Source: a virus
UHGV virus genome: UHGV-0294315
Strand: one strand, 5' to 3'
Length of the DNA stretch: 19,472 nucleotides
The position numbers and the translations under genes were made by a program. This document shows, piece after piece, positions 867 through 17,839 of the stretch (the first letter of the stretch is position 1; every line of letters begins with the position of its first letter). Below the pieces are notes generated by a model that was not told the DNA's origin, made no database searches, and worked only from the letters and a program-made list of their open reading frames with translations.

Positions 867-1045
867 CTTGTTTTCCTCGCACGTTCTCTAAGCCACCGGA
901 TATCCCACAGGTGAGCTGTGTAATTGAAGGTTTTTACGTCAGATTCTTTTGGGATTGGCTTGCGTTTATTTCTGGAGCGTTTCGTTGGAAGGTAATTGCA
1001 GTTTTCGCAGATTATGTCGGTGAAACTTCGTCGCTGTCGTCTCAT
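863..1045 (-). CDS. ninE: NinE
   Basis: [60 protein letters not shown] matches lambda/DLP12 NinE. Start taken at the internal ATG (1045), which overlaps the upstream stop as ATGA. Confidence 0.8.
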
Positions 1046-1644
1046 GCCGCCCTGTCTCCCCATCGCGCTTTCATTGTTTCATTTGCAAATCGCCAGAATC
1101 TTCCTTTGTGATATGAGCTTTCGCCATTACAGCAACGACTAATTGACGAACTATCAAATCCTTCTCTGACAGCATCCATAGCTGCTTCATAATAAACCTC
1201 CTCCCCAGTTTTCATGTCAGTAGAAATAACAGCTTTACTGGCAGGATGATCACCACTAAATTTACCTAGCGATATAGGTATTCTTCCATTTTGTTTATAT
1301 CCGTGCTTTGAGTTTTCAGAATGTGATACCCATTCAAGGTTTTCAGCCCTATTGTCATCTCTTTGCCCATTTTTGTGATTAACTACCAAGCCATCACAGA
1401 ACCCTGTACAGAATGCTTTCGCAACTATCCTGTGGGCGCTGTATTTCTTACCGTATACCTTTATTTGAAGATATCCTGTCGACTTGCACTTGAATGGTTT
1501 TACGCTAGTGCCATTAATTATTTTCTTATATGGCCTCTGTCTGGTTGATGTTACTGTAATTTCCCTCGTAATAGACCTGAAATTCCCTTTATTGCTAACC
1601 TGATAAAATGGAATTCCTTCGATATCTACCCAAACCTCAATCAT
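1042..1644 (-). CDS. HNH homing-endonuclease-like protein (NUMOD4-like N-terminus plus HNH_3-type motif), C-terminal tail derived from a ninB 3' end
   Basis: N-terminus [17 protein letters not shown] (NUMOD4-like); [21 protein letters not shown]...[28 protein letters not shown] (HNH_3-like). Last residues [12 protein letters not shown] match the lambda NinB C-terminus. Strong RBS GGAGGA upstream; start overlaps ninB stop. Confidence 0.7.
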
Positions 1645-2126: not shown

Positions 2127-3503
2127 TCATACGTCAGCCCCTTGTGCATATCGTCTGCCACGCGCAGCAGGTGCATTTGATGATGTGCAAATCTGTCTGG
2201 CTTCATCCTGGTCACAGGCAACAAAGTGTCCGTTGCAGAACCGCTGGTAAACCGTACCAAGCGAGCCAAAACGGTTTTTCGTTACGATGATTTCAGCAAA
2301 TGGCGCGGCGCTACTGTTCTCGTCATATACCGCTTCCCGATAGAGCATGATGATTGAGTCTGCGTCCTGTTCAATGCTTCCTGAATCACGCAAATCTGCG
2401 TTTGTCGGGCGTTTGTTTGGTCGCTTCTCAACATCGCGCGAAAGCTGACTCAGGGAGATAACCGGTGTTTTCAGGTCTTTCGCCATCGCCTTCAGGCTTC
2501 CGGAGATGTGAGCAATTGCGAGGTCGTTGCGGTCTGCTTTCGGCTTCTCAATCAGGCCAAGATAATCCACCATGATTAGTGACAGGTTTGGATTTTCCTG
2601 TTTGTGCCGCTCTGCAATTGAGCGAATTTCTTCGACCGATAACCGCGAGGCATCGACTACCCATACATCCAAATCTGCAAGCTGACTCATGCCGTTAGCA
2701 ACACGCGCCCAGCCTTCGTCATCCATCGATGCAGGATTTCGCAGCACGCTAACCGACATCCTCCCGGCGTTGGCAATACTTCGCTCTGCAATCTGCAATG
2801 CGCTCATTTCCATTGAGAAAATCAATACCCCGCGCCGGACGTCAGAACCAGGAATAACGCGGCTTGCAACGCCTTCGGCAATCTTAAGCGCCAGTTCGGT
2901 TTTCCCCATACCAGGACGAGCAGCGATTATCACAAAGTCTTCTGCGTTCATCCCTCCGGTGATGGCATCAAGTTCTTCGATTCCGGTCTTCAGGGTATCT
3001 GACTCTTCTCCGTTCCTCAGACGCCTGTCAAGCGTGTCAGTGTAGTCAGTGATGATTTCCCCTAACCGCACCGGTTTAACCTCGTCACGGGGCTTTCTGA
3101 TGGCTGAGAGACGCTTTACAAGCTCATCCATCGCCTGACTCGATGCGTCGATGGTTCCGCTCCGAATTGGTTCACGCATTTCATCCATGATTTCCAGCAC
3201 CAGACGGCGGTGATAGTTATCCGCGACCATTCCGGCATATCCCTTCAGGTTTGCGGCACTCGGGCAGTTTTTGCTGGTCATCAGGATTGACGTGAAATGC
3301 TCCTCTCCGCACGCCTCGGCAACCATCAGCGCGTCGATTAGGTTTCTGTTTCTCGCCTGCTTGCGGATAACCTCGAAGGCTTTCCGGTAGAGCGGAATTG
3401 AAAACGCTTCCGGCTCAAGCGTTGCCAGAACGTCACTGGCAGTCGGTGTTAATCCACCAATCAGCAGGCCACCGATAACGCTCGCTTCGATATCCTGTCT
3501 CAT
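2127..3503 (-). CDS. Replicative DNA helicase, DnaB family (phage-encoded, P22 gene 12-like)
   Basis: 458 aa with DnaB N-terminal domain, Walker A ARPGMGKT, and the SLSQLSR motif. Start overlaps the O-like stop (ATGA). Confidence 0.85.
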
Positions 3504-4447
3504 GCAATCCCCCTGTCTGCAAACTTCCCTTCCCGAACTCCCGTTAACGAATCTTCCCTCAGCAGGTAATCAAAATCTGCCGTCCAGCCCGTGTCGTTGT
3601 CTCCGAAGTAAAACGGCTTGGCCTGATGCACAAACGCCCTGACATACGCTCTGAAACCGTCCACGTTTGGCGTTTTCAGTTGCGGGATGATTTTCTTCAG
3701 GCGGCGTTTGCGTTTCTCGTTGACCGCAACAGCGTGTGGCAGTCTGTCACCGACTTCGGTGTTGTAGGCGTTCAGGAAGGATTCGTAGTCGATTCGTTCT
3801 GCCTTGCGACGTTCAGGTTTAACCTGCCCATCGCCGCCCCCATTGGGGGGTAGGGGGGTATTATTTATATTCTTGTTAATACCTTCTTGTTCATGATGTG
3901 CGGTTGTTTGTGCGGCTTCATGTGCGCTTTCATGTGCGGCATGTACGCTGAAAGCCGCGCCATTACTGGCTTCATCATGTGCGGCATCATGTGCGGTTGT
4001 TTGTGCGGCTTCATGTGCGGGTGAATTGTCCATTTTTTGAGCGTATTCATGATAATTTGTGATGGTGATCACACGACCTTTTTGCTTCTCTCCATCAATG
4101 GAGATCATCCCCTCTTTCACAAAAACCTGAAGCATCCGCTCAACCTGATCACGGCTTGCTGGCTTGCCATGTCTGTCGCATAACTGAAGACCTAAATCAG
4201 CTGCTGTCACAACCAGTTGACCGGGTTGCAGATGCCATTCATGACCTTTGAAATTCGCTTTGTATGGCTTTCTGGCGGCATTCAGGAGAAGGTTTTCCCA
4301 CAGGGTGCGAAGATAAACATCTTTCGCCCATGACTGTTTCAGAATGCTCCGGTACAACGGAATGTAACCAGTTTTCTGGTTCTCCATCCTGTTGCTCCTG
4401 CGCTCGTGTGCGGCGCTGAAATCGTAGATTTTTGCTGTATTGCTCAT
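3500..4447 (-). CDS. Replication initiator, lambda O / P22 gene 18-like, with internal origin
   Basis: N-terminus [13 protein letters not shown] resembles lambda O (MTNTAKILNF...). Internal His/Ala-rich peptide repeats are encoded by the DNA iterons. Sits directly upstream of the helicase gene. Confidence 0.75.
3859..4021. repeat. Putative origin of replication: iteron array plus AT-rich segment inside the O-like gene
   Basis: About nine copies of (C/T)ATGTGCGG(C) at 9-12 bp spacing between 3893 and 4021, including a near-identical ~35-bp direct repeat (3892-3926 vs 3986-4021). Adjacent AT-rich stretch 3859-3885 and a G-run at 3845-3858. Confidence 0.6.
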
Positions 4448-5447: not shown

Positions 5448-6164
5448 ATGGAAAATAAAAAATCACTGACGACAGAACAGCTCGAAGACGCTAAGCGGCT
5501 TAAGGCTTTGTATGAGTCAAAAAAGAAAGAATTGGGAATAACCCAATACTCAATCGCTGATGAACTGGGTATCACCCAAGGAGCGGTAGGGCATTATCTT
5601 AATGGCAGAAACGCGCTAAACGTTGAGGTCGCATCTGGTTTTGCACGTTTGTTGCAAGTCTCAATTGCTGATTTTAGCCAGTCAATTGCTGCCAAGGTTG
5701 CAGAACAGGCAGAAAGCCTTAAGAGCGATGCCAACGTAAGGTATGCAGGGGAATACAGAGCAGGAAAGAGGTATCCGGTGTTAAGCAGTATCCAGGCTGG
5801 CTCGTGGTGTGAAGCATGCGAACCATACACCATTAAAGACATAGATGTTTGGCTTGAGTCTGACGCGCATATTCAAGGCAATGCGTTCTGGCTTAAAGTG
5901 GAAGGTGATTCAATGACGGCACCGGTTGGGTTAAGCATTCCAGAGGGAACATTCGTTCTTTTCGATACCGGAAGGGAGGCGATCAACGGCAGCCTGGTCA
6001 TAGCAAAACTTTCTGACTCTAACGAAGCAACATTCAAGAAGCTGATAATCGACGGCGGAAATAAATACCTCAAGGGACTTAACCCTGCATGGCCTCTCGT
6101 GCCAATCAATGGAAACTGCAAGATTATAGGCGTTGCAATTGAGACAAAACTAAGGCTGGTTTGA
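5448..6164 (+). CDS. cI: CI-type prophage repressor (HTH N-terminal domain plus S24 LexA-like autocleavage domain)
   Basis: N-terminus LTTEQLEDAKRLKALYESKKKELGITQ resembles lambda CI; C-terminus FWLKVEGDSMTAPVGLSIPEG...ATFKKL...NGNCKIIGV resembles lambda CI / P22 C2. No Shine-Dalgarno upstream, consistent with a leaderless PRM transcript. Confidence 0.9.
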   Translation: MENKKSLTTEQLEDAKRLKALYESKKKELGITQYSIADELGITQGAVGHYLNGRNALNVEVASGFARLLQVSIADFSQSIAAKVAEQAESLKSDANVRYAGEYRAGKRYPVLSSIQAGSWCEACEPYTIKDIDVWLESDAHIQGNAFWLKVEGDSMTAPVGLSIPEGTFVLFDTGREAINGSLVIAKLSDSNEATFKKLIIDGGNKYLKGLNPAWPLVPINGNCKIIGVAIETKLRLV

Positions 6165-8206: not shown

Positions 8207-9175
8207 ATGAGTGAAGTAACAGATTTAGTTGTTATTGAAAAAGCAAATGCAATGACTGTATTTCAGTCTGCCGACCAGATTGAAGAAATTCTCCAAAAGG
8301 TTGAACGTGAAGTTATGTCCTTTGTGCCTGATATCACAACGGCAAAGGGCAGAAAGGAGATCGCTTCTCTGGCGTATAAAGTTGCGCAGACGAAAACATA
8401 TCTCGATGGTCTTGGCAAAGACCTTGTTGCTGAACTGAAGGAAATTCCAAAGCTAATTGATGCCAACCGCAAGACAGTGCGTGATCGCCTTGATGAGCTG
8501 AAAGCCAAGGCACGCCAGCCTCTTACTGATTATGAGGAAGAACAGGCGCGGATTAAAGCCGAAGAAGAAGCTAAGGCAGCAGCTGAAGCTCTCGCAAAGC
8601 AAATTGAGTCTGACCATGAAATAGCGATTTTGATGGATCGCGAATTTGACCGCCAAAGAGAAGAGGCAAGACTCAAAGCGGAGCAGGAAAAGCGAGAGCA
8701 TGAAGAACGCTTAAAAAGAGAAGCTGAAGAGAAAGCCAGAGCTGAAGCCGAAGCAAAGGCAAAAGCCGAAATTGAAGCAGCAGCAAGACGAGAAGCAGAG
8801 GCTAAGGCCGCAGCGGAACGTGCAGAGCGTGAACGCATTGAAGCCGAGCAACGAGCACAGCGCGAAGCAAAAGAGGCAGCAGAACGAGCTGAAAGAGAAA
8901 AGCAGGCAGCAATTGAAGCAGAACGCAGAAAAGCACAGGAGGAGGCTGAACGAATCCGGCGCGAGGCTGAAGCAAAAGAGCAAGCCAGAATAGCAGAAGA
9001 AAAAAGAATCAAGGAAGAAGAAGAGCGTAGAGCAAAGGATAAAGCTCACCGGAAAGAAGTAAATAACAAAATACTTGCTGACCTTATCAAGGTTGGCGCA
9101 TCAGAAGATGTTGCTAAAAATATCATAACAGCCATCGTAAAAGGCGAAGTATTCGCAACAAAAATAACCTACTAA
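8207..9175 (+). CDS. Coiled-coil protein with a TolA-like Glu/Ala/Lys/Arg-rich central repeat region (322 aa)
   Basis: Start at the internal ATG 8207 (RBS GGAGGA); the track's 5' extension would include the terminator. Middle section is a long EAKAKAE / ERAERE-type low-complexity helix flanked by unique N- and C-terminal segments. Confidence 0.6.
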   Translation: MSEVTDLVVIEKANAMTVFQSADQIEEILQKVEREVMSFVPDITTAKGRKEIASLAYKVAQTKTYLDGLGKDLVAELKEIPKLIDANRKTVRDRLDELKAKARQPLTDYEEEQARIKAEEEAKAAAEALAKQIESDHEIAILMDREFDRQREEARLKAEQEKREHEERLKREAEEKARAEAEAKAKAEIEAAARREAEAKAAAERAERERIEAEQRAQREAKEAAERAEREKQAAIEAERRKAQEEAERIRREAEAKEQARIAEEKRIKEEEERRAKDKAHRKEVNNKILADLIKVGASEDVAKNIITAIVKGEVFATKITY

Positions 9176-9199
9176 TAAAACCAACATAAGGAACCACCC

Positions 9200-9331
9200 A
9201 TGATTTACGCAATCGCGGGAGGCGCTCGCATGGGTGCCTTCCAACTAAATGAATCTTTACTTGAACGAATCACCCGTAAATTACGTGACGGATGGAAAAG
9301 AGTTGAGGTCTTATTATGCGCAATGAAATAG
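9200..9331 (+). CDS. cIII: CIII (FtsH inhibitor, stabiliser of CII)
   Basis: Manual translation MIYAIAGGARMGAFQLNESLLERITRKLRDGWKRVEVLLCAMK; the core ESLLERITRKLRDGWKR is identical to lambda CIII as remembered. Confidence 0.8.
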   Translation: MIYAIAGGARMGAFQLNESLLERITRKLRDGWKRVEVLLCAMK

Positions 9332-9468
9332 CCATTAATCACCAGATGCTTCGTGCGGCACAAAACAAAGCAGTAATAGCCAGATTTATTGGTGATTCAA
9401 AAATGTGGCTTGAAGCAAATAAAGCGATGAAATCAGCGATCAACATTCCGTGGTATCGCAGGAAATGA
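9316..9468 (+). CDS. kil: Kil-like protein (host cell-division inhibitor), overlapping the cIII 3' end
   Basis: MRNEIAINHQMLRAAQNKAVIARFIGDSKMWLEANKAMKSAINIPWYRRK; overlap with cIII and position match the lambda cIII-kil arrangement. Sequence similarity to lambda Kil is from uncertain memory. Confidence 0.5.
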   Translation: MRNEIAINHQMLRAAQNKAVIARFIGDSKMWLEANKAMKSAINIPWYRRK

Positions 9469-9542
9469 GTTTTACAGATAACTGGTCAGACGAAGAATTC
9501 ATTCGTCAGATGAAAGAATTAATCGGCAACGAAGGAGATATT

Positions 9543-9713
9543 CATGTCACTTGCAACCACAGTGAAGGAGAGCAAGTTACAGAGACGCATGTACACGCAG
9601 CAGGCGTTAATGTATCGCCAGAAGGGAGATCGTGAAGGTGTTCGCGTATTTTTAAATGCGGCAAAGACTGAAGTATTAAATCAGCGTTATTTCCTTTGGC
9701 CGTGTCCATTCTG
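9543..9713 (+). CDS. Hypothetical small protein (56 aa); alternative overlapping frame 9465..9635
   Basis: ATG preceded by GGAGAT; MSLATTVKESKLQRRMYTQQALMYRQKGDREGVRVFLNAAKTEVLNQRYFLWPCPF. The other frame has a weaker RBS. Only one of the two is likely real. Confidence 0.35.
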
Positions 9714-9722
9714 AGGTGAATT

Positions 9723-10430
9723 ATGGATTTGAATAAATTCGATGAGCCATTCAGCCCTGAAGATATCGAATGGCGAATACAGCAAAGCGGTAAAACACGC
9801 GATGGCAAAGTGTGGGCTATGGTGCTGGCTTATGTCACGAACCGGGCAATCATGAAACGCCTGGACGATGTTTGCGGCAAAGCAGGATGGCGCAATGAAT
9901 ACCGCGATATTCCCAACAACGGCGGCGTTGAATGCGGCATATCAATCAAGATTGATTCCGAATGGGTAACCAAATGGGATGCTGCTGAAAACACGCAGGT
10001 AGAAGCCGTCAAAGGCGGTCGTTCCGGTGCAATGAAGCGCGCTGCCGTTCAGTGGGGAATCGGTCGGTATCTGTATAACCTTGAGGAAGGTTTTGCACAA
10101 ACATCTCTCGATAAAAAGCAGGGATGGCACAGGGCAAAACTCAAGGATGGAACAGGATTTTACTGGCTCCCTCCATCGCTGCCGGGATGGGCAATCCCAG
10201 CATCAGATAACAAACCATCACCAGAAAATACCAACCAGAAATCTCCATCGGTTGACTGCGAACAAATCCTGAAAGACTTCAGCGATTATGCGTCAACAGA
10301 AACTGACAAGAAAAAACTCATCGAGCGTTATCAGCGTGACTGGCAATTAATGGCTGGCAACGAGGAGGCGCAGGCTAAATGCGTTCAGGTAATGAACATC
10401 AGAGTTAACGAACTAAAACAGGCGGCATAA
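9723..10430 (+). CDS. Single-strand annealing protein, Rad52/Rad22-like family
   Basis: 235-aa ORF in the bet/erf position, directly upstream of ssb. AYVTNRAIMKRLDDVCGKAGWRNEY and GAMKRAAVQWGIGRYLY resemble the Rad52-type annealing fold. Family assignment is from memory. Confidence 0.6.
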   Translation: MDLNKFDEPFSPEDIEWRIQQSGKTRDGKVWAMVLAYVTNRAIMKRLDDVCGKAGWRNEYRDIPNNGGVECGISIKIDSEWVTKWDAAENTQVEAVKGGRSGAMKRAAVQWGIGRYLYNLEEGFAQTSLDKKQGWHRAKLKDGTGFYWLPPSLPGWAIPASDNKPSPENTNQKSPSVDCEQILKDFSDYASTETDKKKLIERYQRDWQLMAGNEEAQAKCVQVMNIRVNELKQAA

Positions 10431-10946
10431 ATGGCAAGCAGAGGCGTAAATAAGGTGATCATTATTGGTCGCCTTGGGCATGATCCAGAAATCAGATATT
10501 CACCATCAGGAACGGCATTTGCAAACCTTACCGTTGCTACGTCAGAACAATGGCGTGATAAGAAAACTGGAGAGCAAAAGGAGCAGACGGAGTGGCACCG
10601 CGTGGTAATGAGCGGGAAACTGGCAGAAATTGCCAGCGAATATCTGCGAAAAGGCTCTGAGGTTTATCTTGAAGGCAAATTGCGGACAAGAAAATGGCAG
10701 GATCAAAGCGGACAGGATCGGTTCACTACCGAAGTCATCGTGGGCGTTGGTGGAACCATGCAAATGCTTGGTGGCAAGCAAGGAGGCAATGAACAGTCTT
10801 CACCTCAGCGAAATAACGGTCAGCAACAAAGACAGCAATCTCAGCAGCAGGGGAATCACAGCGAACCACCTATGGATTTTGACGACGATATACCCTTTGC
10901 ACCAGTAACTCTCCCCTTCCCTCGTCACGCTATTCACGCAATTTAA
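10431..10946 (+). CDS. ssb: Single-stranded DNA-binding protein SSB with a 15-residue C-terminal extension
   Basis: [23 protein letters not shown]...[50 protein letters not shown]...MDFDDDIPF is near-identical to E. coli SSB, but the ORF continues [15 protein letters not shown] before the stop. Confidence 0.9.
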
Positions 10947-12110: not shown

Positions 12111-12424
12111 CAATCACAAAACAACGAGTAGAAGAAATCATATCGCGCATTGAAATGTATGGGCATGGTGCAGGATATACCGCCGAAGAGGTTTATGACC
12201 TTGCTGTACTGGCGCTGAATTTATCAAATATCGCAAACCTGAAGCGATACGAGCTTGATATGGGAGGTTGCGACTCGTGCGGTCAGGATTGTGGCGCTGA
12301 CATGACTGAAGATTCTGATGGCGATTATGTCCTGTTTGATGACGTGGTTAAGTTGTTTGAGTTTGATACAACCACTCAGAAGTTAGAAGGCCAAGCAAAG
12401 GAGGCAACCAGTGAGCAAGATTGA
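12107..12424 (+). CDS. Hypothetical acidic protein (105 aa)
   Basis: ATGA-coupled to the upstream gene; CDSCGQDCG Cys cluster; acidic tail. Confidence 0.5.
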   Translation: MTITKQRVEEIISRIEMYGHGAGYTAEEVYDLAVLALNLSNIANLKRYELDMGGCDSCGQDCGADMTEDSDGDYVLFDDVVKLFEFDTTTQKLEGQAKEATSEQD

Positions 12425-13070
12425 CTATCAGACGCTGCGTGAGATAGCAAAACAGGCAACACAGGGTGAATGGGTCGCATTTATTTCGTCTGGTACTGGT
12501 ACATATGCGGTGCATACACCTGGTGATAAACGATGTGAAGACGTTATCAAATGGACCGGCTTTGATGGACAGAACAACGCAGAGAACAACGCTCGTTATA
12601 TCGCAGCTTTCAACCCTGAAGTAGTGCAGGCACTGCTGGATGAACGGGAAAGAAACCAGCAATACATCAAACGCCGCGACCAGGAGAACGAGGATATTGC
12701 GCTAACGGTAGGGAAACTGCGTGTTGAGCTGGAAGCCGCAGAGAAGCGCAACGCAAAATTACAAAGCGAGAATGCATACATCCGCAACCGGTTCAAAGAA
12801 CTGGACCTGTTAATCGGGAAAAACATTCTGGTCATGCAGGCTGCCATTATCGAATGGCAGGCAACTGGCGACGCTAAGAGCGGACTGGCATGGATTTATA
12901 ACACACTGTTTGGCCCTGGCGAATTACCGGACAAATCTGAGAAAGATGCTCAGGCCTACTTTAATCGCAAATATGCACCGATTGACGAAAAGCTTATGGC
13001 GCTTCACAAGTGGTTTTGGGAACAAAGTGAAGCCGAGCGCTCCGCTGGCATTCGCATCAAAGGAGAGTGA
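12411..13070 (+). CDS. Ead/Ea22-like phage protein (219 aa)
   Basis: GTG start 7 nt after AAGGAGG; N-terminus MSKIDYQTLREIAKQATQGEWV resembles the conserved start of enterobacterial ead/Ea22-like proteins (from memory). Confidence 0.5.
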   Translation: MSKIDYQTLREIAKQATQGEWVAFISSGTGTYAVHTPGDKRCEDVIKWTGFDGQNNAENNARYIAAFNPEVVQALLDERERNQQYIKRRDQENEDIALTVGKLRVELEAAEKRNAKLQSENAYIRNRFKELDLLIGKNILVMQAAIIEWQATGDAKSGLAWIYNTLFGPGELPDKSEKDAQAYFNRKYAPIDEKLMALHKWFWEQSEAERSAGIRIKGE

Positions 13071-13071
13071 A

Positions 13072-13437
13072 ATGGCACTGACGAAAAAACAACGTGCAGA
13101 ATTGCGCATGAAGTTTGGCGGTCGCTGTGCTTATTGCGGCTGTGAACTTGGCGAAAAGTGGCATGCAGACCATGTAAAACCGGTCATTCGTTTTGATGGA
13201 AATATGCTTCACCAGGAACGTGACGATATATCCAACATGGTTCCGGCATGCCACCCATGCAATCTGCACAAGCATTGCAGTAGCCTGGAAGATTATCGGC
13301 GAATTATCAGTGATGGTCGTCGTGAATTCCTTGCATCCGGGAAAGGCAAAGCGCTGGTTCGTATGGGATTGGTTGAAATGAAATCTGACCCGGTTGTGTT
13401 CTGGTTTGAAAAATATCAAGAAGGGGCTACGGTATGA
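13072..13437 (+). CDS. HNH endonuclease (121 aa)
   Basis: Start at the internal ATG (RBS AGGAGA); HNH signature CAYCGCEL...WHADHVKP...NMVPACHPCNLHK. Confidence 0.7.
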   Translation: MALTKKQRAELRMKFGGRCAYCGCELGEKWHADHVKPVIRFDGNMLHQERDDISNMVPACHPCNLHKHCSSLEDYRRIISDGRREFLASGKGKALVRMGLVEMKSDPVVFWFEKYQEGATV

Positions 13438-14210
13438 CCACTATTACCAAAGAGCGACTACTTACAATCAAGCAGTGGCGCGAAACATACGGACCTGGTA
13501 GCAACGTTGTACTGCCAGCAGAAGAAGCGGAAGAACTGGCACGAATTGCACTGGCATCGCTGGAAGCAGATCCAGTTGCTTATATTTTCAAACATCCGGC
13601 CGGGAAATTATTCTGGGCTTTGACGGATGAAAGTAATAAAGATCAATCGGACGTTATTCCTGTTTATGCCACCCCTCCAGTGCCAGTAGTACCTGAAGAA
13701 AAACCAATGCCTAACCCTCTTAAAATGTACGCGGTCGATGCTGTTGCCGCTATTGCAGAGGTGAGAGGCTGGAACGCCTGCCGCGCCGCCATGCTTCAGG
13801 CCGAACCTGTAAGTAATAGTGATGAGTTACCGCTGGACTATCTGCAAGGACACAAAGACGGCCTGGAGTGGGCTGCACAATTGGCAGAAGCCAATCATCC
13901 GCAAACAGGTGACTGGTTGTACGACGACCCAATCGATCTTGCCAGGGCGATTCGCAAAGGTCCTGATATGCCTACTGTTCAGGCTGGCAACTCTCCGGTA
14001 ACTCCGGATGGTTGGATAAGCTGTAGTGATCGAATGCCGGATACCAAAACAGCCGTTCTTGTTGCCGTGGAGTTTGACAGGAAAGGTGACTGGCGAATGA
14101 AATGGGCGACTTACATCCCGGGTCATCCTGACGCTAATGATGGGTGGATAATTCCTGGTGCGTCGTGGAAACCGTCACACTGGATGCGGCTACCAGAGCC
14201 TCCACTTTGA
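13434..14210 (+). CDS. DUF551-type phage protein (258 aa)
   Basis: ATGA-coupled to the HNH gene; C-terminal WISCSDRMPD...W...LPEPP resembles the DUF551 pattern common in enterobacterial prophages (from memory). Confidence 0.55.
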   Translation: MTTITKERLLTIKQWRETYGPGSNVVLPAEEAEELARIALASLEADPVAYIFKHPAGKLFWALTDESNKDQSDVIPVYATPPVPVVPEEKPMPNPLKMYAVDAVAAIAEVRGWNACRAAMLQAEPVSNSDELPLDYLQGHKDGLEWAAQLAEANHPQTGDWLYDDPIDLARAIRKGPDMPTVQAGNSPVTPDGWISCSDRMPDTKTAVLVAVEFDRKGDWRMKWATYIPGHPDANDGWIIPGASWKPSHWMRLPEPPL

Positions 14211-14617: not shown

Positions 14618-14818
14618 ATGCAACACGAACTACAACCTGATTCACTGGTTGATTTGAAATTCATCATGGCTGATACTGGCTTCGGTAAGACCTTCATCTA
14701 TGACCGGATTAAGTCCGGCGACCTGCCAAAAGCCAAAGTTATCCACGGGCGAGCAAGATGGTTATATCGTGACCATTGTGAATTCAAAAATAAGCTCTTA
14801 AGCCGCGCCAATGGGTAA
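14618..14818 (+). CDS. xis: Excisionase / AlpA-family small DNA-binding protein
   Basis: 66 aa, LVDLKFIMADTGFGKTFIYDRIKSGDLPKAKVIHGRARWLYRDHCEFKNKL fits the AlpA/Xis winged-HTH pattern; located immediately upstream of the integrase. Confidence 0.65.
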   Translation: MQHELQPDSLVDLKFIMADTGFGKTFIYDRIKSGDLPKAKVIHGRARWLYRDHCEFKNKLLSRANG

Positions 14819-15090
14819 AATAGCGGGTAAAATATTTTTCACATCTAAAAAACACCATTCCAATCAATCCCCTGCCGCGCCAAGTAGATGTCTGCAGGGG
14901 ACACTTTAAAGACCTTTCTCTACATTTCACTTCATTACATAACCACTTAAAAAAACAGTAAGTTATCACCGAATCGGCCTGATTTTCATTTCAGTTAATT
15001 TCATGACATTACAACCTCGTGATGGTATAAGTGATGGTATTCCCCAGTTCGATATGCAGATACCATCAATCTACCAAAATGAGTACAGAT

Positions 15091-16365
15091 ATGGCCATTA
15101 ATGTGCTTTCCCCCAAACAGATAGAAAACGCCAAGCCGAAGACCAATGATTACAAACTTACCGATGGAGGGAGTTTGTATCTACTGGTACGAAAGACTGG
15201 TGGAAAATACTGGCGTATGAATTATCGTTTTGATGGAAAACAAGTGACATTGGCATTAGGGGTCTACCCAGATGTCTCACTTGCAACAGCGCGGAAACGG
15301 CGTGATGAAGCCAGGCAACTACTAGCCGATGGTCGTGATCCTCGCGAAGCAAAGAAACCCAAAAAGGAAGACCCAATTTCCCCCACGTTCGAGAGTGTTG
15401 CCAGAGAGTGGCATAGTAGAACGATAGGGCATCCTGAGTGGAAAGAGATCACCCGTAAAAAAATTCTCCGAGAAATGGAAAACCACCTCTTTCCTGCCAT
15501 CGGTTCAAAGCCTATCGATACGCTCAAAACCCGTGACTTGATGCCGATGCTGGTTGAGATGACTGAGAAAGGAATTGGTGCCACAACGAGCCGGGTAAAA
15601 ACCACTATGACGAGCATCTTCCGTTATGCCGTGCAACGTGGAATTGTCGATTACAACCCTGCCCACGATCTAAAAGGTGCAATTACGACCCCCAAAGTAC
15701 GACATCGCCCCGCACTACCTCTCGAACGTTTACCTGAACTGTTAGCGAAAACGAGAAGTTACACGGGAAGACCATTGACTCGCCTAGCAGTTCTATTTTC
15801 CCTGCACACTTTTGTGCGATCCAGCGAACTACGACATGCCAGATGGGAGGAGATCGACATTGAAAATGGGCTATGGACGATACCAGGACAACGTGAAGAG
15901 ATCGCAGGGGTTAAATTCTCAGAGCGGGGTGCAAAGATGGGGGCTGCTCATTATGTCCCGCTATCTAGTCAGGCTATCGGGGTACTGGAGGATATAAGGA
16001 AAATCAGTGGTGAATATCTGCTGGTTTTCCCCGGTGACAGCAACCCATATAAACCGATGAGCGAAAACACAGTTAATAAAGCACTGCGAACGATGGGTTA
16101 CGACACTCAAAGTGATGTTTGCTTGCATGGGTTCAGGGCGATGGCCTGCTCTGCACTGACCGAATCAGGACTCTGGTCACGCGATGCAGTTGAACGGCAG
16201 ATGAGTCACCAAGAAAGAAACGAAGTGCGGGCAGCATATGTGCATCTTGCGCAGCACATGCAGGAACGCCGCAGAATGATGCAATGGTGGTCTAATTATC
16301 TGGAACTAAATAAGGACGAATTTCATGCTCCTTATGACTTATCAGGTATTAACATTATCAATTAA
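15091..16365 (+). CDS. int: Tyrosine integrase, P4-type (DUF4102 arm-binding N-terminus plus phage integrase catalytic domain)
   Basis: MAINVLSPKQIENAKPKTNDYKLTDGGSLYLLVRKTGGKYWRMNYRFDGKQVTLALGVYPDVSLATARKRRDEARQLLADGRDP is a typical P4-family integrase N-terminus. Start could also be ATG 15079 or the track's GTG 15031. Confidence 0.85.
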   Translation: MAINVLSPKQIENAKPKTNDYKLTDGGSLYLLVRKTGGKYWRMNYRFDGKQVTLALGVYPDVSLATARKRRDEARQLLADGRDPREAKKPKKEDPISPTFESVAREWHSRTIGHPEWKEITRKKILREMENHLFPAIGSKPIDTLKTRDLMPMLVEMTEKGIGATTSRVKTTMTSIFRYAVQRGIVDYNPAHDLKGAITTPKVRHRPALPLERLPELLAKTRSYTGRPLTRLAVLFSLHTFVRSSELRHARWEEIDIENGLWTIPGQREEIAGVKFSERGAKMGAAHYVPLSSQAIGVLEDIRKISGEYLLVFPGDSNPYKPMSENTVNKALRTMGYDTQSDVCLHGFRAMACSALTESGLWSRDAVERQMSHQERNEVRAAYVHLAQHMQERRRMMQWWSNYLELNKDEFHAPYDLSGINIIN

Positions 16366-16395
16366 ATTTTCTTATAATTTAAAACAGAGGTCATA

Positions 16396-17277
16396 ATGCA
16401 GCATTCAAAAGAGAATGAAACTATATTCTTAGGAAATCTATGGATTGACAAAAAAATACCACCATTAGAATATTGTTCATTTGAACGCGCTTCAAGACTA
16501 TTAGAATGCGAGATTGATGATTTATTACACCTATACGAAATAGGCGCTTTTAATATCGCATTCAAGGCGGATGGACTTGCAGTTAGATTTAATGTTAATT
16601 TCCTCTATAAAAATCAGAAAATGGAAATTGACTTAATTCATCCCGTATTAACTAATCAATCACTAGAGATGGAATTTTCAACAATATGGTATGACCTTAA
16701 AGATGACTCCTTTGAACATTTTGAAAATGGGCTTCAAATTATAGGATTTGCCTGTGGTATTTGGTACGCCGATGATATGATAAGTGACATAAAAAATGGA
16801 TTAGCTATAGATCCAGATTATGAATTCAGGCTTAAACCGGTAAAAATACGAGATAATGTTTTGATGGCAACGGCCTCATATGAAGGAAATAAGGTCATTG
16901 ATATTCCATTTGAAGATCTTCTTATCATGCGAAGAGATTTAGAGTTAATATGGAAATCAGTAAAAACTGGAATTCCTATGCCAAGTTTACTTACGAAAAG
17001 AATTTCATCTGAACCTAAAATCCCCAAGCGATTAAATAACACTGCTGAGCATCATGCAAAAAATAGGGGGGGGTTATTAAATGCAGCCATATATATATTA
17101 GCAAAATACCCAAGCGAATGTCGTGGTGAAAGAAAAGAGATAAGTCCTGAAAAGTGGACTAACGCCATAATTAAACATTTAGGAGAGCTACCTCCAATAT
17201 TTATCACTAATGAACAAGAAATCTTAAGAAAATTACGATTAGCGGTTAATCATGCGGGATTAAAACAAAAGGGGTAG
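16396..17277 (+). CDS. Hypothetical 293-aa protein, AT-rich standalone gene between int and alpA
   Basis: Own consensus -10 TATAAT (16373-16378) and RBS AGAGG; long intact ORF in strongly AT-rich DNA. No domain recognised. Confidence 0.6.
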   Translation: MQHSKENETIFLGNLWIDKKIPPLEYCSFERASRLLECEIDDLLHLYEIGAFNIAFKADGLAVRFNVNFLYKNQKMEIDLIHPVLTNQSLEMEFSTIWYDLKDDSFEHFENGLQIIGFACGIWYADDMISDIKNGLAIDPDYEFRLKPVKIRDNVLMATASYEGNKVIDIPFEDLLIMRRDLELIWKSVKTGIPMPSLLTKRISSEPKIPKRLNNTAEHHAKNRGGLLNAAIYILAKYPSECRGERKEISPEKWTNAIIKHLGELPPIFITNEQEILRKLRLAVNHAGLKQKG

Positions 17278-17379
17278 ACTGAAACAATCTACAGGTAGAG
17301 TTGATTACACTACCTTCACAGCATTTTGATATCCCCATAGTATCTGCCGTGTTCATTACATAACACGGCAGGTAATTTC

Positions 17380-17595
17380 ATGACATTAAAAACTTATCCT
17401 ATCACTGGACATGCCCGCCCACGAGCTACTGCTGACTTTTTGCAAATAAGTACGGTTACTCTCTGGCGCTGGGAAAAGAACAATCCTGAATTTCCCAAAT
17501 CTATACGCATTTCAAAACGGGTATCTGTTTACGATGCACAAGAAATTAGGCAGTGGGTTAAAGCTCAATCAGCAGGATTGGAGGAAGTAGTGTAA
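17380..17595 (+). CDS. alpA: AlpA / HTH_17-family transcriptional regulator (P4 Vis-like)
   Basis: 71 aa, ATADFLQISTVTLWRWEKNNPEFPKSIRISKRVSVYDAQEIRQWVK matches the AlpA/excisionase HTH pattern. Confidence 0.65.
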   Translation: MTLKTYPITGHARPRATADFLQISTVTLWRWEKNNPEFPKSIRISKRVSVYDAQEIRQWVKAQSAGLEEVV

Positions 17596-17644: not shown

Positions 17645-17839
17645 TCAATTCTTTGGTTCTAAACCTCGGCTTTGTAACTCTTTGCGTAGAATGCGCTTGA
17701 TCCAAGCCGCTAGCGATTCATCGCCATCCTGCTGTTGTGCTTGTTCCATCAGTTCACGCAGTTCAGGGTCAAGTCGGAACTGGAATGGCGGATTCCCACG
17801 TCTTTCATTTTTGTGTGTTGACACGTCAATTACACCCAT
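17645..17839 (-). CDS. Ribbon-helix-helix (Arc/CopG/MetJ-like) DNA-binding protein
   Basis: 64 aa; NPPFQFRLDPELRELMEQ resembles an RHH beta-strand/helix-A signature. Its promoter region carries repeated TGTAATG half-sites. Confidence 0.5.
   Translation of the reverse strand: MGVIDVSTHKNERRGNPPFQFRLDPELRELMEQAQQQDGDESLAAWIKRILRKELQSRGLEPKN

Follow-up and report, generated by a model that had tools for sequence, protein, structure and literature searches.

A hypervariable gene family is the usual occupant of the integrase-alpA junction in Enterobacterales phage satellites and may act with their excision and activation switch

The viral genome UHGV-0294315, a stretch of 19,472 nucleotides (nt) hereafter called the window, is Escherichia coli sequence in which a lambdoid prophage is followed by a P4-like phage satellite, in tandem at a tRNA-Arg gene. 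Between the integrase gene of this satellite (int) and the gene for its AlpA-family regulator (alpA) lies a gene of 293 codons, here called gene X, which a first-pass annotation made from the letters alone had taken for horizontally acquired cargo and a candidate single-gene defence or exclusion factor. We find instead that X belongs to a family without description in the databases and literature searched, and that this family is the usual occupant of the int-alpA position in Enterobacterales phage satellites, whether P4-like or resembling phage-inducible chromosomal islands (PICI). Because it is always placed directly after int and before alpA, X probably works with the excision and activation switch, and our preferred, still tentative, reading is that it is an integrase/AlpA-linked specificity or gating factor for these two steps.

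The surroundings of X genes were read along several routes (single-protein look-ups, annotated E. coli genomes, a species-genome scan, an integrase-first survey of viral contigs and two scans for the fis-end repeat), which gave 37 matches with 21 distinct int-X-alpA triplets, plus nine matches from the fis-end scans. All X genes with readable upstream DNA lie directly 3' of a P4-type int on the same strand, at a distance of -4 to 157 nt, and all full-length X genes with readable downstream DNA have alpA as the next gene, 56-147 nt on and again on the same strand; in the window the two spacers measure 30 nt (int to X) and 102 nt (X to alpA). Among the loci read, none has an X-family gene away from this junction. 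The order is kept at three attachment sites (tRNA-Arg/yfdC, yicC and fis), in E. coli, Salmonella, Serratia, Yersinia, Kosakonia and metagenomic elements, in P4-like and PICI-like satellites, and with varied genes after alpA (Phage_ASH, AntA, Bro-N, ORF6N, primases of the D5 and DUF927 types, P4 psu/sid/delta). In eight enterobacterial satellites integrated at fis, the start of X overlaps the int stop codon by 4 nt (an ATGA read directly in locus L146, and deduced from the coordinates of the open reading frames (ORF) in the other seven), which suggests that the two genes are translationally coupled there.

In the integrase-first survey, ten loci (L023-L032) combine an integrase at least 77% identical to that of the window with a downstream stretch longer than about 160 nt. 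An X-family gene directly follows int in all ten, truncated or degraded in L025 and L030 and cut by the contig end in L023, and alpA was found after each of the seven full-length copies. The first-pass annotation had proposed comparing what related elements carry in this interval, and had accepted that universal presence of the same gene would speak against its view; at the level of the family, that is what close relatives display. Nor can X be regarded as randomly acquired orphan cargo, since its family counts at least 532 sequence clusters and every member with read flanks sits directly after int. Farther away the picture changes. Integrases about 50% identical to that of the window, in the canonical P4 arrangement where alpA is distant, have neither X nor alpA directly after them, and more distant integrases are followed by X and alpA, by an empty int-alpA gap of 84-273 nt or by a few unrelated genes. 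The supposed variability of the interval is real in this sense, empty or otherwise occupied junctions being encountered at large evolutionary distance. E. coli elements that share the alpA region of the window without its allele hold in the slot a diverged X-family member of 324 amino acids (E 4e-18).

Unrelated occupants of the slot found elsewhere are a DUF6387 gene, a 202-amino-acid ORF and a 414-amino-acid ORF, while in E. coli K-12 it contains yfjH on the opposite strand. DUF6387 is a second, unrelated family in the same place: in the fis-site satellite L115 such a gene (8966-9820, minus strand; E 1e-28) overlaps the int stop codon, L207 and L208 do likewise by position, and a DUF6387 gene is listed beside alpA in the Klebsiella island ICEKp258.2 (PMC10763509). 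EcCIMP1 was set aside as another kind of element, in which no more than a small ORF separates int from alpA.

Gene X itself is intact, running on the plus strand from an ATG at 16396 to a TAG at 17275-17277, and its product is labelled hypothetical protein in RefSeq (WP_001164795.1, in the 100%-identical chromosome L001). It is preceded by a promoter-like site, TTAACA-18-TATAAT (16349-16378, plus strand; 11 of 12 consensus matches, by pattern match only), which overlaps the int stop codon and places its TATAAT at 16373-16378, and by a Shine-Dalgarno-like GAGG read directly in the sequence at 16387-16390, 5 nt before the start codon. The reading frame, the -10 element and the ribosome-binding site are all present as first annotated. 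Room for such a promoter is missing in some members of the family, the int-X distance being as variable as indicated above.

How large this family is became apparent only with sensitive searches. A word-indexed homology search returned 12 clusters; when the alignment of these 12 was used for an exhaustive hidden Markov model (HMM) search through 1.84 billion representative proteins, the yield was 532 clusters at E <= 1e-3, or 152 at the stricter E <= 1e-10. Almost all matches are full-length proteins of 260-340 amino acids, most clusters hold one to five sequences, and the named members, from Serratia, Yersinia, Klebsiella and Salmonella, are 'hypothetical' without exception. Scanning a genome collection with the family alignment gave four loci, by search patterns limited to the subfamily-specific C-terminus, and tblastn found no relatives in 50,697 phage records. 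The X protein has no usable match in Pfam, NCBIfam, PHROGs, PADLOC or the PDB sequences, which bears out the earlier impression that it contains no recognisable domain, and 74 diverse relatives likewise have no Pfam domain and no PDB sequence relative. Against PADLOC-DB v2 the window protein gave 0 matches at E values up to 10, and nine diverse relatives gave nothing except one weak match to AriB (E 5e-4). This match to the PARIS effector concerns residues 189-263, in the linker and C-terminal region, of the remote member P0100, one of ten members tested, and is probably spurious. A kinase match in the PDB from a two-profile search was also spurious, being caused by a His-tag. Homology of X to YfjH of K-12, P4 cII, DUF6387 and the 414-amino-acid slot occupant was dismissed after comparison. 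Two of these are reminiscent of X by their place, P4 cII as a gene of unknown function on the same strand directly downstream of int, and YfjH as the product of a gene of unknown function between intA and alpA of CP4-57, but neither is homologous (hhalign probabilities of 0.2% and 0.1%, respectively) and yfjH is on the opposite strand. The window gene is best described as an uncharacterised example of an already known class defined by position, the integrase-contiguous genes of satellites.

The structure prediction and neighbour search that had been proposed for the protein gave a confident AlphaFold2 model (mean predicted local distance difference test score of 85.8, with 187 residues at 90 or more, from a 149-sequence alignment) and structural neighbours at the level of single domains only, among them winged helix-turn-helix (HTH) proteins of the MerR/CbpM type. 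The model consists of a beta-alpha-alpha-beta N-terminal unit, a beta-rich alpha/beta middle part, a basic linker and a four-helix C-terminal domain. The N-terminal module (codons 21-52, 16456-16551, plus strand), with the motif PPLEYCxxxRAxxLLxCxxxDLxHxxxIG and a winged-HTH-like fold, is the sole part conserved throughout the family (PLEYCxxxRAAxLLxCxxxDLxHW) and is acidic, with a pI of 4.25 in the window and a family median of 4.9. The middle domain (codons 56-195, 16561-16980, plus strand) is beta-rich, hypervariable and exchanged between alleles. The C-terminal module (codons 216-293, 17041-17274, plus strand), of about 75 residues, is basic (pI 9.7), helical and near-invariant in the Enterobacterales subfamily, where it reads ERHAxNRE...ECRG..KEISPEKW...; this is the first of at least two unrelated C-terminal types, the second being found in L028, L029, L031, L082 and L146.

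The N-terminal module can be aligned in register with the HTH of the neighbouring AlpA (E 0.0014), with an hhalign probability of only 17%, and Pfam HTH_17, Phage_AlpA and MerR have no match in the window protein or the 74 relatives. Compared with the AlpA/Vis/Xis/TorI proteins (HTH_17, MerR superfamily), X has a like beta-alpha-alpha-beta layout in its predicted N-terminal fold and MerR-family structural neighbours, but it is four times larger, has two extra domains and carries acidic residues at the recognition-helix positions, its second helix reading CExxDLxHW as against S-x-V-T-x-W-R-W in AlpA. The best-conserved residues of the family are Y26, A32, C38, D42, H45, G50, G121 and W123. No catalytic-type invariant residues, no effector-type domain and no consistent membrane segment were found in the family; given the lack of a catalytic-type residue set and of a consistent membrane segment, X looks like a protein of the binding or regulatory type rather than an enzyme or a pore. 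Also among the best-conserved positions are C27, C38, H45 and C242, and this C-C-H-C pattern, present in 53 of the 149 members of the family alignment, may bind a metal or provide a redox-sensitive link between the N- and C-terminal modules.

While its position is constant, X is hypervariable and mosaic in sequence. Over the 210 pairs of distinct triplets, identity in X is only loosely correlated with identity in the integrase (Spearman 0.31) or AlpA (0.23), as compared with 0.72 between integrase and AlpA, and integrase pairs that are 100%, 95% and 93% identical carry X alleles that are 50%, 21% and 27% identical, respectively. In the pair with identical integrases the last 100 or so residues of X are the same, the N-terminal modules are 45-66% identical and the middle domains 10-16%, from which it follows that recombination breakpoints lie inside the gene; as judged from these sequences, the middle domain turns over rapidly by recombination. 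When the window is compared with an element carrying another allele, DNA identity is 65-80% in int, falls to noise level in X and rises to 90-97% from 17343, a jump that coincides with the left edge of an inverted repeat before alpA. Each allele is rare, three of them occurring in 78, 10 and 41 of 5426 E. coli genomes, the first of these being the window allele. Disrupted copies are known, with an IS1A insertion in E. coli E41 (NZ_CP069707.1) and with only the first 54% of the X region present in ETEC1722, so the gene is dispensable for its host. The earlier picture of variable cargo is therefore right in that the allele is rare, sometimes disrupted and evolving independently of its flanks, and wrong in that a single family at a single position is involved. 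For all this turnover, X is functional and under purifying selection: relative to an allele with 92% identity, the ratio of non-synonymous to synonymous substitution (dN/dS) is 0.22 for the whole gene, 0.25 for its middle domain and 0.09 for its C-terminal module.

The composition of X had been read as a sign of horizontal acquisition. The gene is indeed AT-rich relative to its flanks, with a GC content of 0.32-0.36 as against 0.45-0.51 in int and 0.45-0.60 in the downstream DNA. X is, however, more AT-rich than its own integrase in all 21 distinct loci (Wilcoxon p about 1e-6), with mean GC contents of 0.389 for X, 0.497 for int and 0.488 for alpA. AT-richness is a trait of the whole family and is therefore no evidence that the window copy was acquired recently. 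Across these loci X lies consistently about 11 GC points below both flanking genes whatever the GC content of the host; candidate causes are selection for H-NS binding, amino-acid composition and exchange from a shared pool of AT-rich alleles.

The DNA between X and alpA bears on which of its two neighbours X is expressed with. Two short hairpins follow the X stop codon (17274-17315, plus strand), GTAGA..TCTAC at 17274-17292 and AGGTAG..CTACCT at 17294-17315; the RNA fold of 17270-17400 has a z-score of -4.2, and comparable hairpins, read by eye and unscored, follow the X stop in L002, L006 and L008. They are a possible weak terminator between an int-X unit and alpA. A candidate alpA promoter, TTCACA-17-TAGTAT (17315-17343, plus strand; 9 of 12 matches, by pattern match only), ends where the inverted repeat begins. 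With hairpins and a promoter-like site in between, X appears to belong to the int unit and not to the induced unit.

The inverted repeat itself (17344-17371, plus strand) is a perfect one of 10 bp, CTGCCGTGTT (17344-17353) and AACACGGCAG (17362-17371), with an 8-nt loop. It ends 8 nt before the alpA start, its right arm overlaps the alpA Shine-Dalgarno sequence, and it can be extended imperfectly to 17324-17391. An inverted repeat of lineage-specific sequence ends 2-9 nt before the alpA start in 13 of the 21 loci, and one double compensatory change was found (CCCGTAAC/GTTACGGG as against CCCCTAAC/GTTAGGGG). Loci with an equivalent repeat include L006, L008, L016-L018, L028, L014, L080 and L146, with loops of 8-27 nt. 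Next to X alleles with an overall identity of 24%, and with N-terminal HTH-like modules that are about half identical, the repeat shows 100% identity; unchanged beside such different alleles, it belongs to the regulation of alpA. The first-pass annotation had located it correctly, yet took for the boundary of X a repeat with which the conserved alpA block begins. It may be a protein operator, such as a site of autoregulation by AlpA, or else an RNA hairpin that covers the Shine-Dalgarno sequence. Its interpretation as a cargo boundary or as an X-specific operator was dismissed, the same repeat standing as part of that block beside different X alleles.

How X might act has to be seen against what is known of its neighbours. 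In Gram-negative satellites AlpA is the helper-induced master activator (PMC6092414; PMC11773190; PMC10803314), its uncontrolled expression is harmful (PMC6092414), and for Gram-negative PICIs the literature offers neither a repressor nor a helper signal (PMC6092414; PMC11773190). The general PICI layout has an 'integration zone' with the integrase and AlpA/HTH_17 only (PMC10111431). For a gene placed as X is, the one published precedent comes from Vibrio phage-inducible chromosomal minimalist islands (PICMI), most subfamilies of which have an integrase-overlapping (iolg) or integrase-contiguous (icg) gene between int and alpA; at a 20% identity threshold these genes form 13 families of unknown function (PMC10803314), and a family as variable as X would fragment at such a cut-off. 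In PICMI115, deletion of iolg, int or alpA each abolished excision, and it was proposed that int and iolg are constitutive and alpA helper-induced (PMC10803314). Like X, the iolg/icg genes lie directly after or overlap int, on the same strand and before alpA, and are highly diverse in sequence, and the X relatives of enterobacterial fis-site satellites share with them the 4-nt overlap and the integration site at the 3' end of fis. The window gene, 30 nt from int and with a promoter-like site of its own, is contiguous instead of overlapping, and at least one further family that overlaps int, DUF6387, has no relationship to X. Two scans of viral contigs for Vibrio PICMIs by the fis-end repeat recovered only enterobacterial fis-site satellites.

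We propose, on these grounds, that X would be made alongside the integrase in the quiescent satellite, from a putative promoter overlapping the end of int in the window element and through a start codon lying over the int stop in the fis-site relatives. It would be a partner in the Int/AlpA excision-activation switch, in which the conserved N-terminal module might anchor it to Int, AlpA or their DNA sites and the variable middle domain might set the helper or host conditions under which the satellite excises or stays put, a role like that suggested for iolg of the PICMI satellites.

Several observations weigh against this reading of X as an integrase/AlpA-linked specificity or gating factor. 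The gene is not universal, as the empty and otherwise occupied junctions described above demonstrate, and disrupted copies exist, with the IS1 insertion and the truncations. Its divergence is independent of that of int, to the point that identical integrases occur with half-identical X proteins, and this decoupling is unlike what a strictly co-adapted cofactor of the integrase would display. DNA binding by an HTH-like module that is acidic is doubtful. As to the precedent, the likeness of X to the iolg gene that was tested in PICMI115 is positional, and the iolg deletion was complemented only by int and iolg together, so that polar effects or effects on int were not fully excluded (PMC10803314).

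The first alternative, less probable but a serious competitor, is that X is a stand-alone anti-phage or exclusion factor whose middle domain recognises an invader protein and whose conserved modules block the invader by sequestration or through a host factor, in a non-enzymatic way; X would ride on the integrase transcript because the quiescent satellite expresses that transcript. Much of the allelic picture fits: the alleles are hypervariable, recombining and individually rare, X is decoupled from both flanks, facultative and sometimes disrupted, and in being rare, recombining and dispensable it resembles typical arms-race genes. In addition, unrelated genes can fill the same slot, the window copy has a strong promoter-like site of its own, and a place after int suits any gene wanted in quiescence. 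Satellites are known carriers of defence genes, and the S. aureus pathogenicity islands (SaPI) have accessory genes beside int (PMC9122126; 2026 preprint; PMC6092414). The resemblance extends to the defence cargo of P4-like hotspots (PMC9122126; PMC8628076; 2026 preprint), which is also carried by P4-like satellites, int-adjacent, variable and expressed in the quiescent state. However, the X slot is dominated by one family even between deeply diverged integrases, unlike real hotspots with their many unrelated systems, and X was never seen outside the int-alpA junction. Moreover, apart from the weak AriB match, ten diverse members have no counterpart in PADLOC, and the family lacks an effector-type domain, catalytic-type conserved residues and a consistent membrane segment.

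The known P4-like hotspot also lies elsewhere. In the canonical P4 order, int-[hotspot]-psu-delta-sid-alpA-epsilon-alpha (PMC8628076; P4 record), the published defence hotspot of P4-like satellites is between int and psu (2026 preprint), while the order in the X element is int-X-alpA...alpha-sid-psu-delta. The equivalent of the hotspot in this rearranged satellite comes after delta, and its occupant is a 398-amino-acid ORF (L001 23689-24885, beyond the window) with a PADLOC match to DzbB (Dazbog) at E 2e-9, in its C-terminal half only, and a weak Pfam match to MauJ; no DzbA partner gene is annotated beside it in L001. Without an effector domain or a match to a known defence family, and with the hotspot filled by another gene, the proposal of a single-gene defence factor has lost ground and is kept here as a rival.

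A second alternative, which we consider unlikely, is that X is a helper-sensing anti-activator analogous to Stl, restraining AlpA or the alpA promoter and keeping the self-activating alpA loop from firing spuriously until a helper protein binds the variable domain and lifts the block. X is suitably placed, beside int and immediately 5' of the alpA control region with its promoter-like site and its repeat over the Shine-Dalgarno sequence, and an AlpA/MerR-like N-terminal fold without basic recognition-helix residues would suit a decoy or heterodimer partner. The missing repressor and helper signal of Gram-negative PICIs and the harm done by uncontrolled AlpA (PMC6092414) leave room for such a protein. 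The SaPI master repressors Stl and Rpr are, like X, int-adjacent and strongly divergent between similar islands, with an N-terminal HTH-type module and variable domains, so that the hypervariability of the X alleles recalls that of Stl, and X would fill a helper-coupling role that is vacant in Gram-negative satellites. There is, however, no sequence relationship, X is co-directional with alpA in all loci while Stl is divergently transcribed, and the HTH-like module of X is acidic. Experiments on related elements also argue against restraint by X: an alpA reporter plasmid of EcCICFT073 answered helper induction in island-free strains (PMC6092414), so that other island genes were unneeded unless plasmid-borne, and deletion of iolg in the PICMI abolished excision instead of derepressing it. 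Finally, the inverted repeat tracks the alpA block and not the X allele, and int-alpA elements without X exist.

A bolder reading would make the X family the missing helper-specificity component of Gram-negative satellites, a modular sensor, co-expressed with int, that would detect a helper-phage protein by its exchangeable middle domain and gate AlpA/Int-dependent excision and activation by its conserved AlpA-like N-terminal module. We regard this as a speculative proposal with a rather low probability; if it is true, X would be a functional counterpart of SaPI Stl built on a different fold and logic.

That X is a neutral hitch-hiking ORF or a decaying remnant without current function, as its 'hypothetical' annotation and the truncated or IS1-interrupted copies might be taken to mean, is highly improbable, being contradicted by purifying selection (dN/dS as given above, strictest in the C-terminal module), by hundreds of full-length relatives of conserved length and motifs and by a confident structure prediction.

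The element that carries X combines features of two types of satellite, P4 capsid-hijacking genes and a left end laid out as in a Gram-negative PICI, with int and then alpA. In chromosome L001 it is integrated at the tRNA-Arg gene beside yfdC, and its genes are, in order, int, X, alpA, an Icd-like gene, DUF5375, a TOPRIM/DUF927 primase, a Sid/Psu-like gene, psu, ogr/delta and the 398-amino-acid ORF, followed by attR. The P4-type tyrosine integrase (15091-16365, plus strand; WP_024198532.1 in L001) has the Pfam domains Arm-DNA-bind_3, Phage_int_M and Phage_integrase; its start is taken from RefSeq, the longest int ORF beginning at a GTG at 15031. The AlpA-family HTH regulator or excisionase (17380-17595, plus strand) matches Pfam Phage_AlpA at E 1.6e-7. 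Downstream of it, RefSeq annotates a 64-amino-acid antisense ORF (17645-17839, minus strand), and a strong terminator-like hairpin is seen on the minus strand at 17637-17612. The P4-type genes of the element include the Icd-like gene, a DUF5375/cnr-like gene and an alpha-type primase; despite these, no P4-type CI/C4/isrK immunity RNA was found in the window with Rfam at gathering thresholds.

Upstream of the satellite, the window from position 1 to about 14.8 kb is the early, left region of a lambdoid prophage of the P22/KplE1-like kind. It encodes a homing-endonuclease-like protein with NUMOD4 and HNH_3 (1042-1644, minus strand) beside the replication genes, these being a DnaB-type helicase (2127-3503, minus strand) and a replication protein O (3500-4447, minus strand), then an S24/HTH_3 repressor of the CI type (5448-6164), a Rad52/Erf-type recombinase (9723-10430), a single-stranded DNA-binding protein (SSB, 10431-10946), Ead/Ea22 (12411-13070), a DUF551 protein (13434-14210) and a TorI-like excisionase (Xis, 14618-14818). 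Prophage and satellite stand in tandem at one tRNA-Arg site, as they do in strain EC974, and homology to genomes that have only the satellite starts at about 14892, within the tRNA 3' end. This place of the junction explains why no tRNA is complete in the window and why ARAGORN found none.

These findings bear on helper sensing and the control of excision in Gram-negative satellites as a whole, be they PICIs, P4-like hybrids or PICMIs. In enteric satellites the integration zone very often holds a third gene besides int and alpA, and the X family is a concrete candidate, be it as a determinant of helper specificity and excision control or as a new way in which satellites might exclude phages without an enzyme. 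The family also calls for caution in the hotspot-based discovery of defence systems, because a gene that is AT-rich, variable and adjacent to an integrase is not necessarily cargo.

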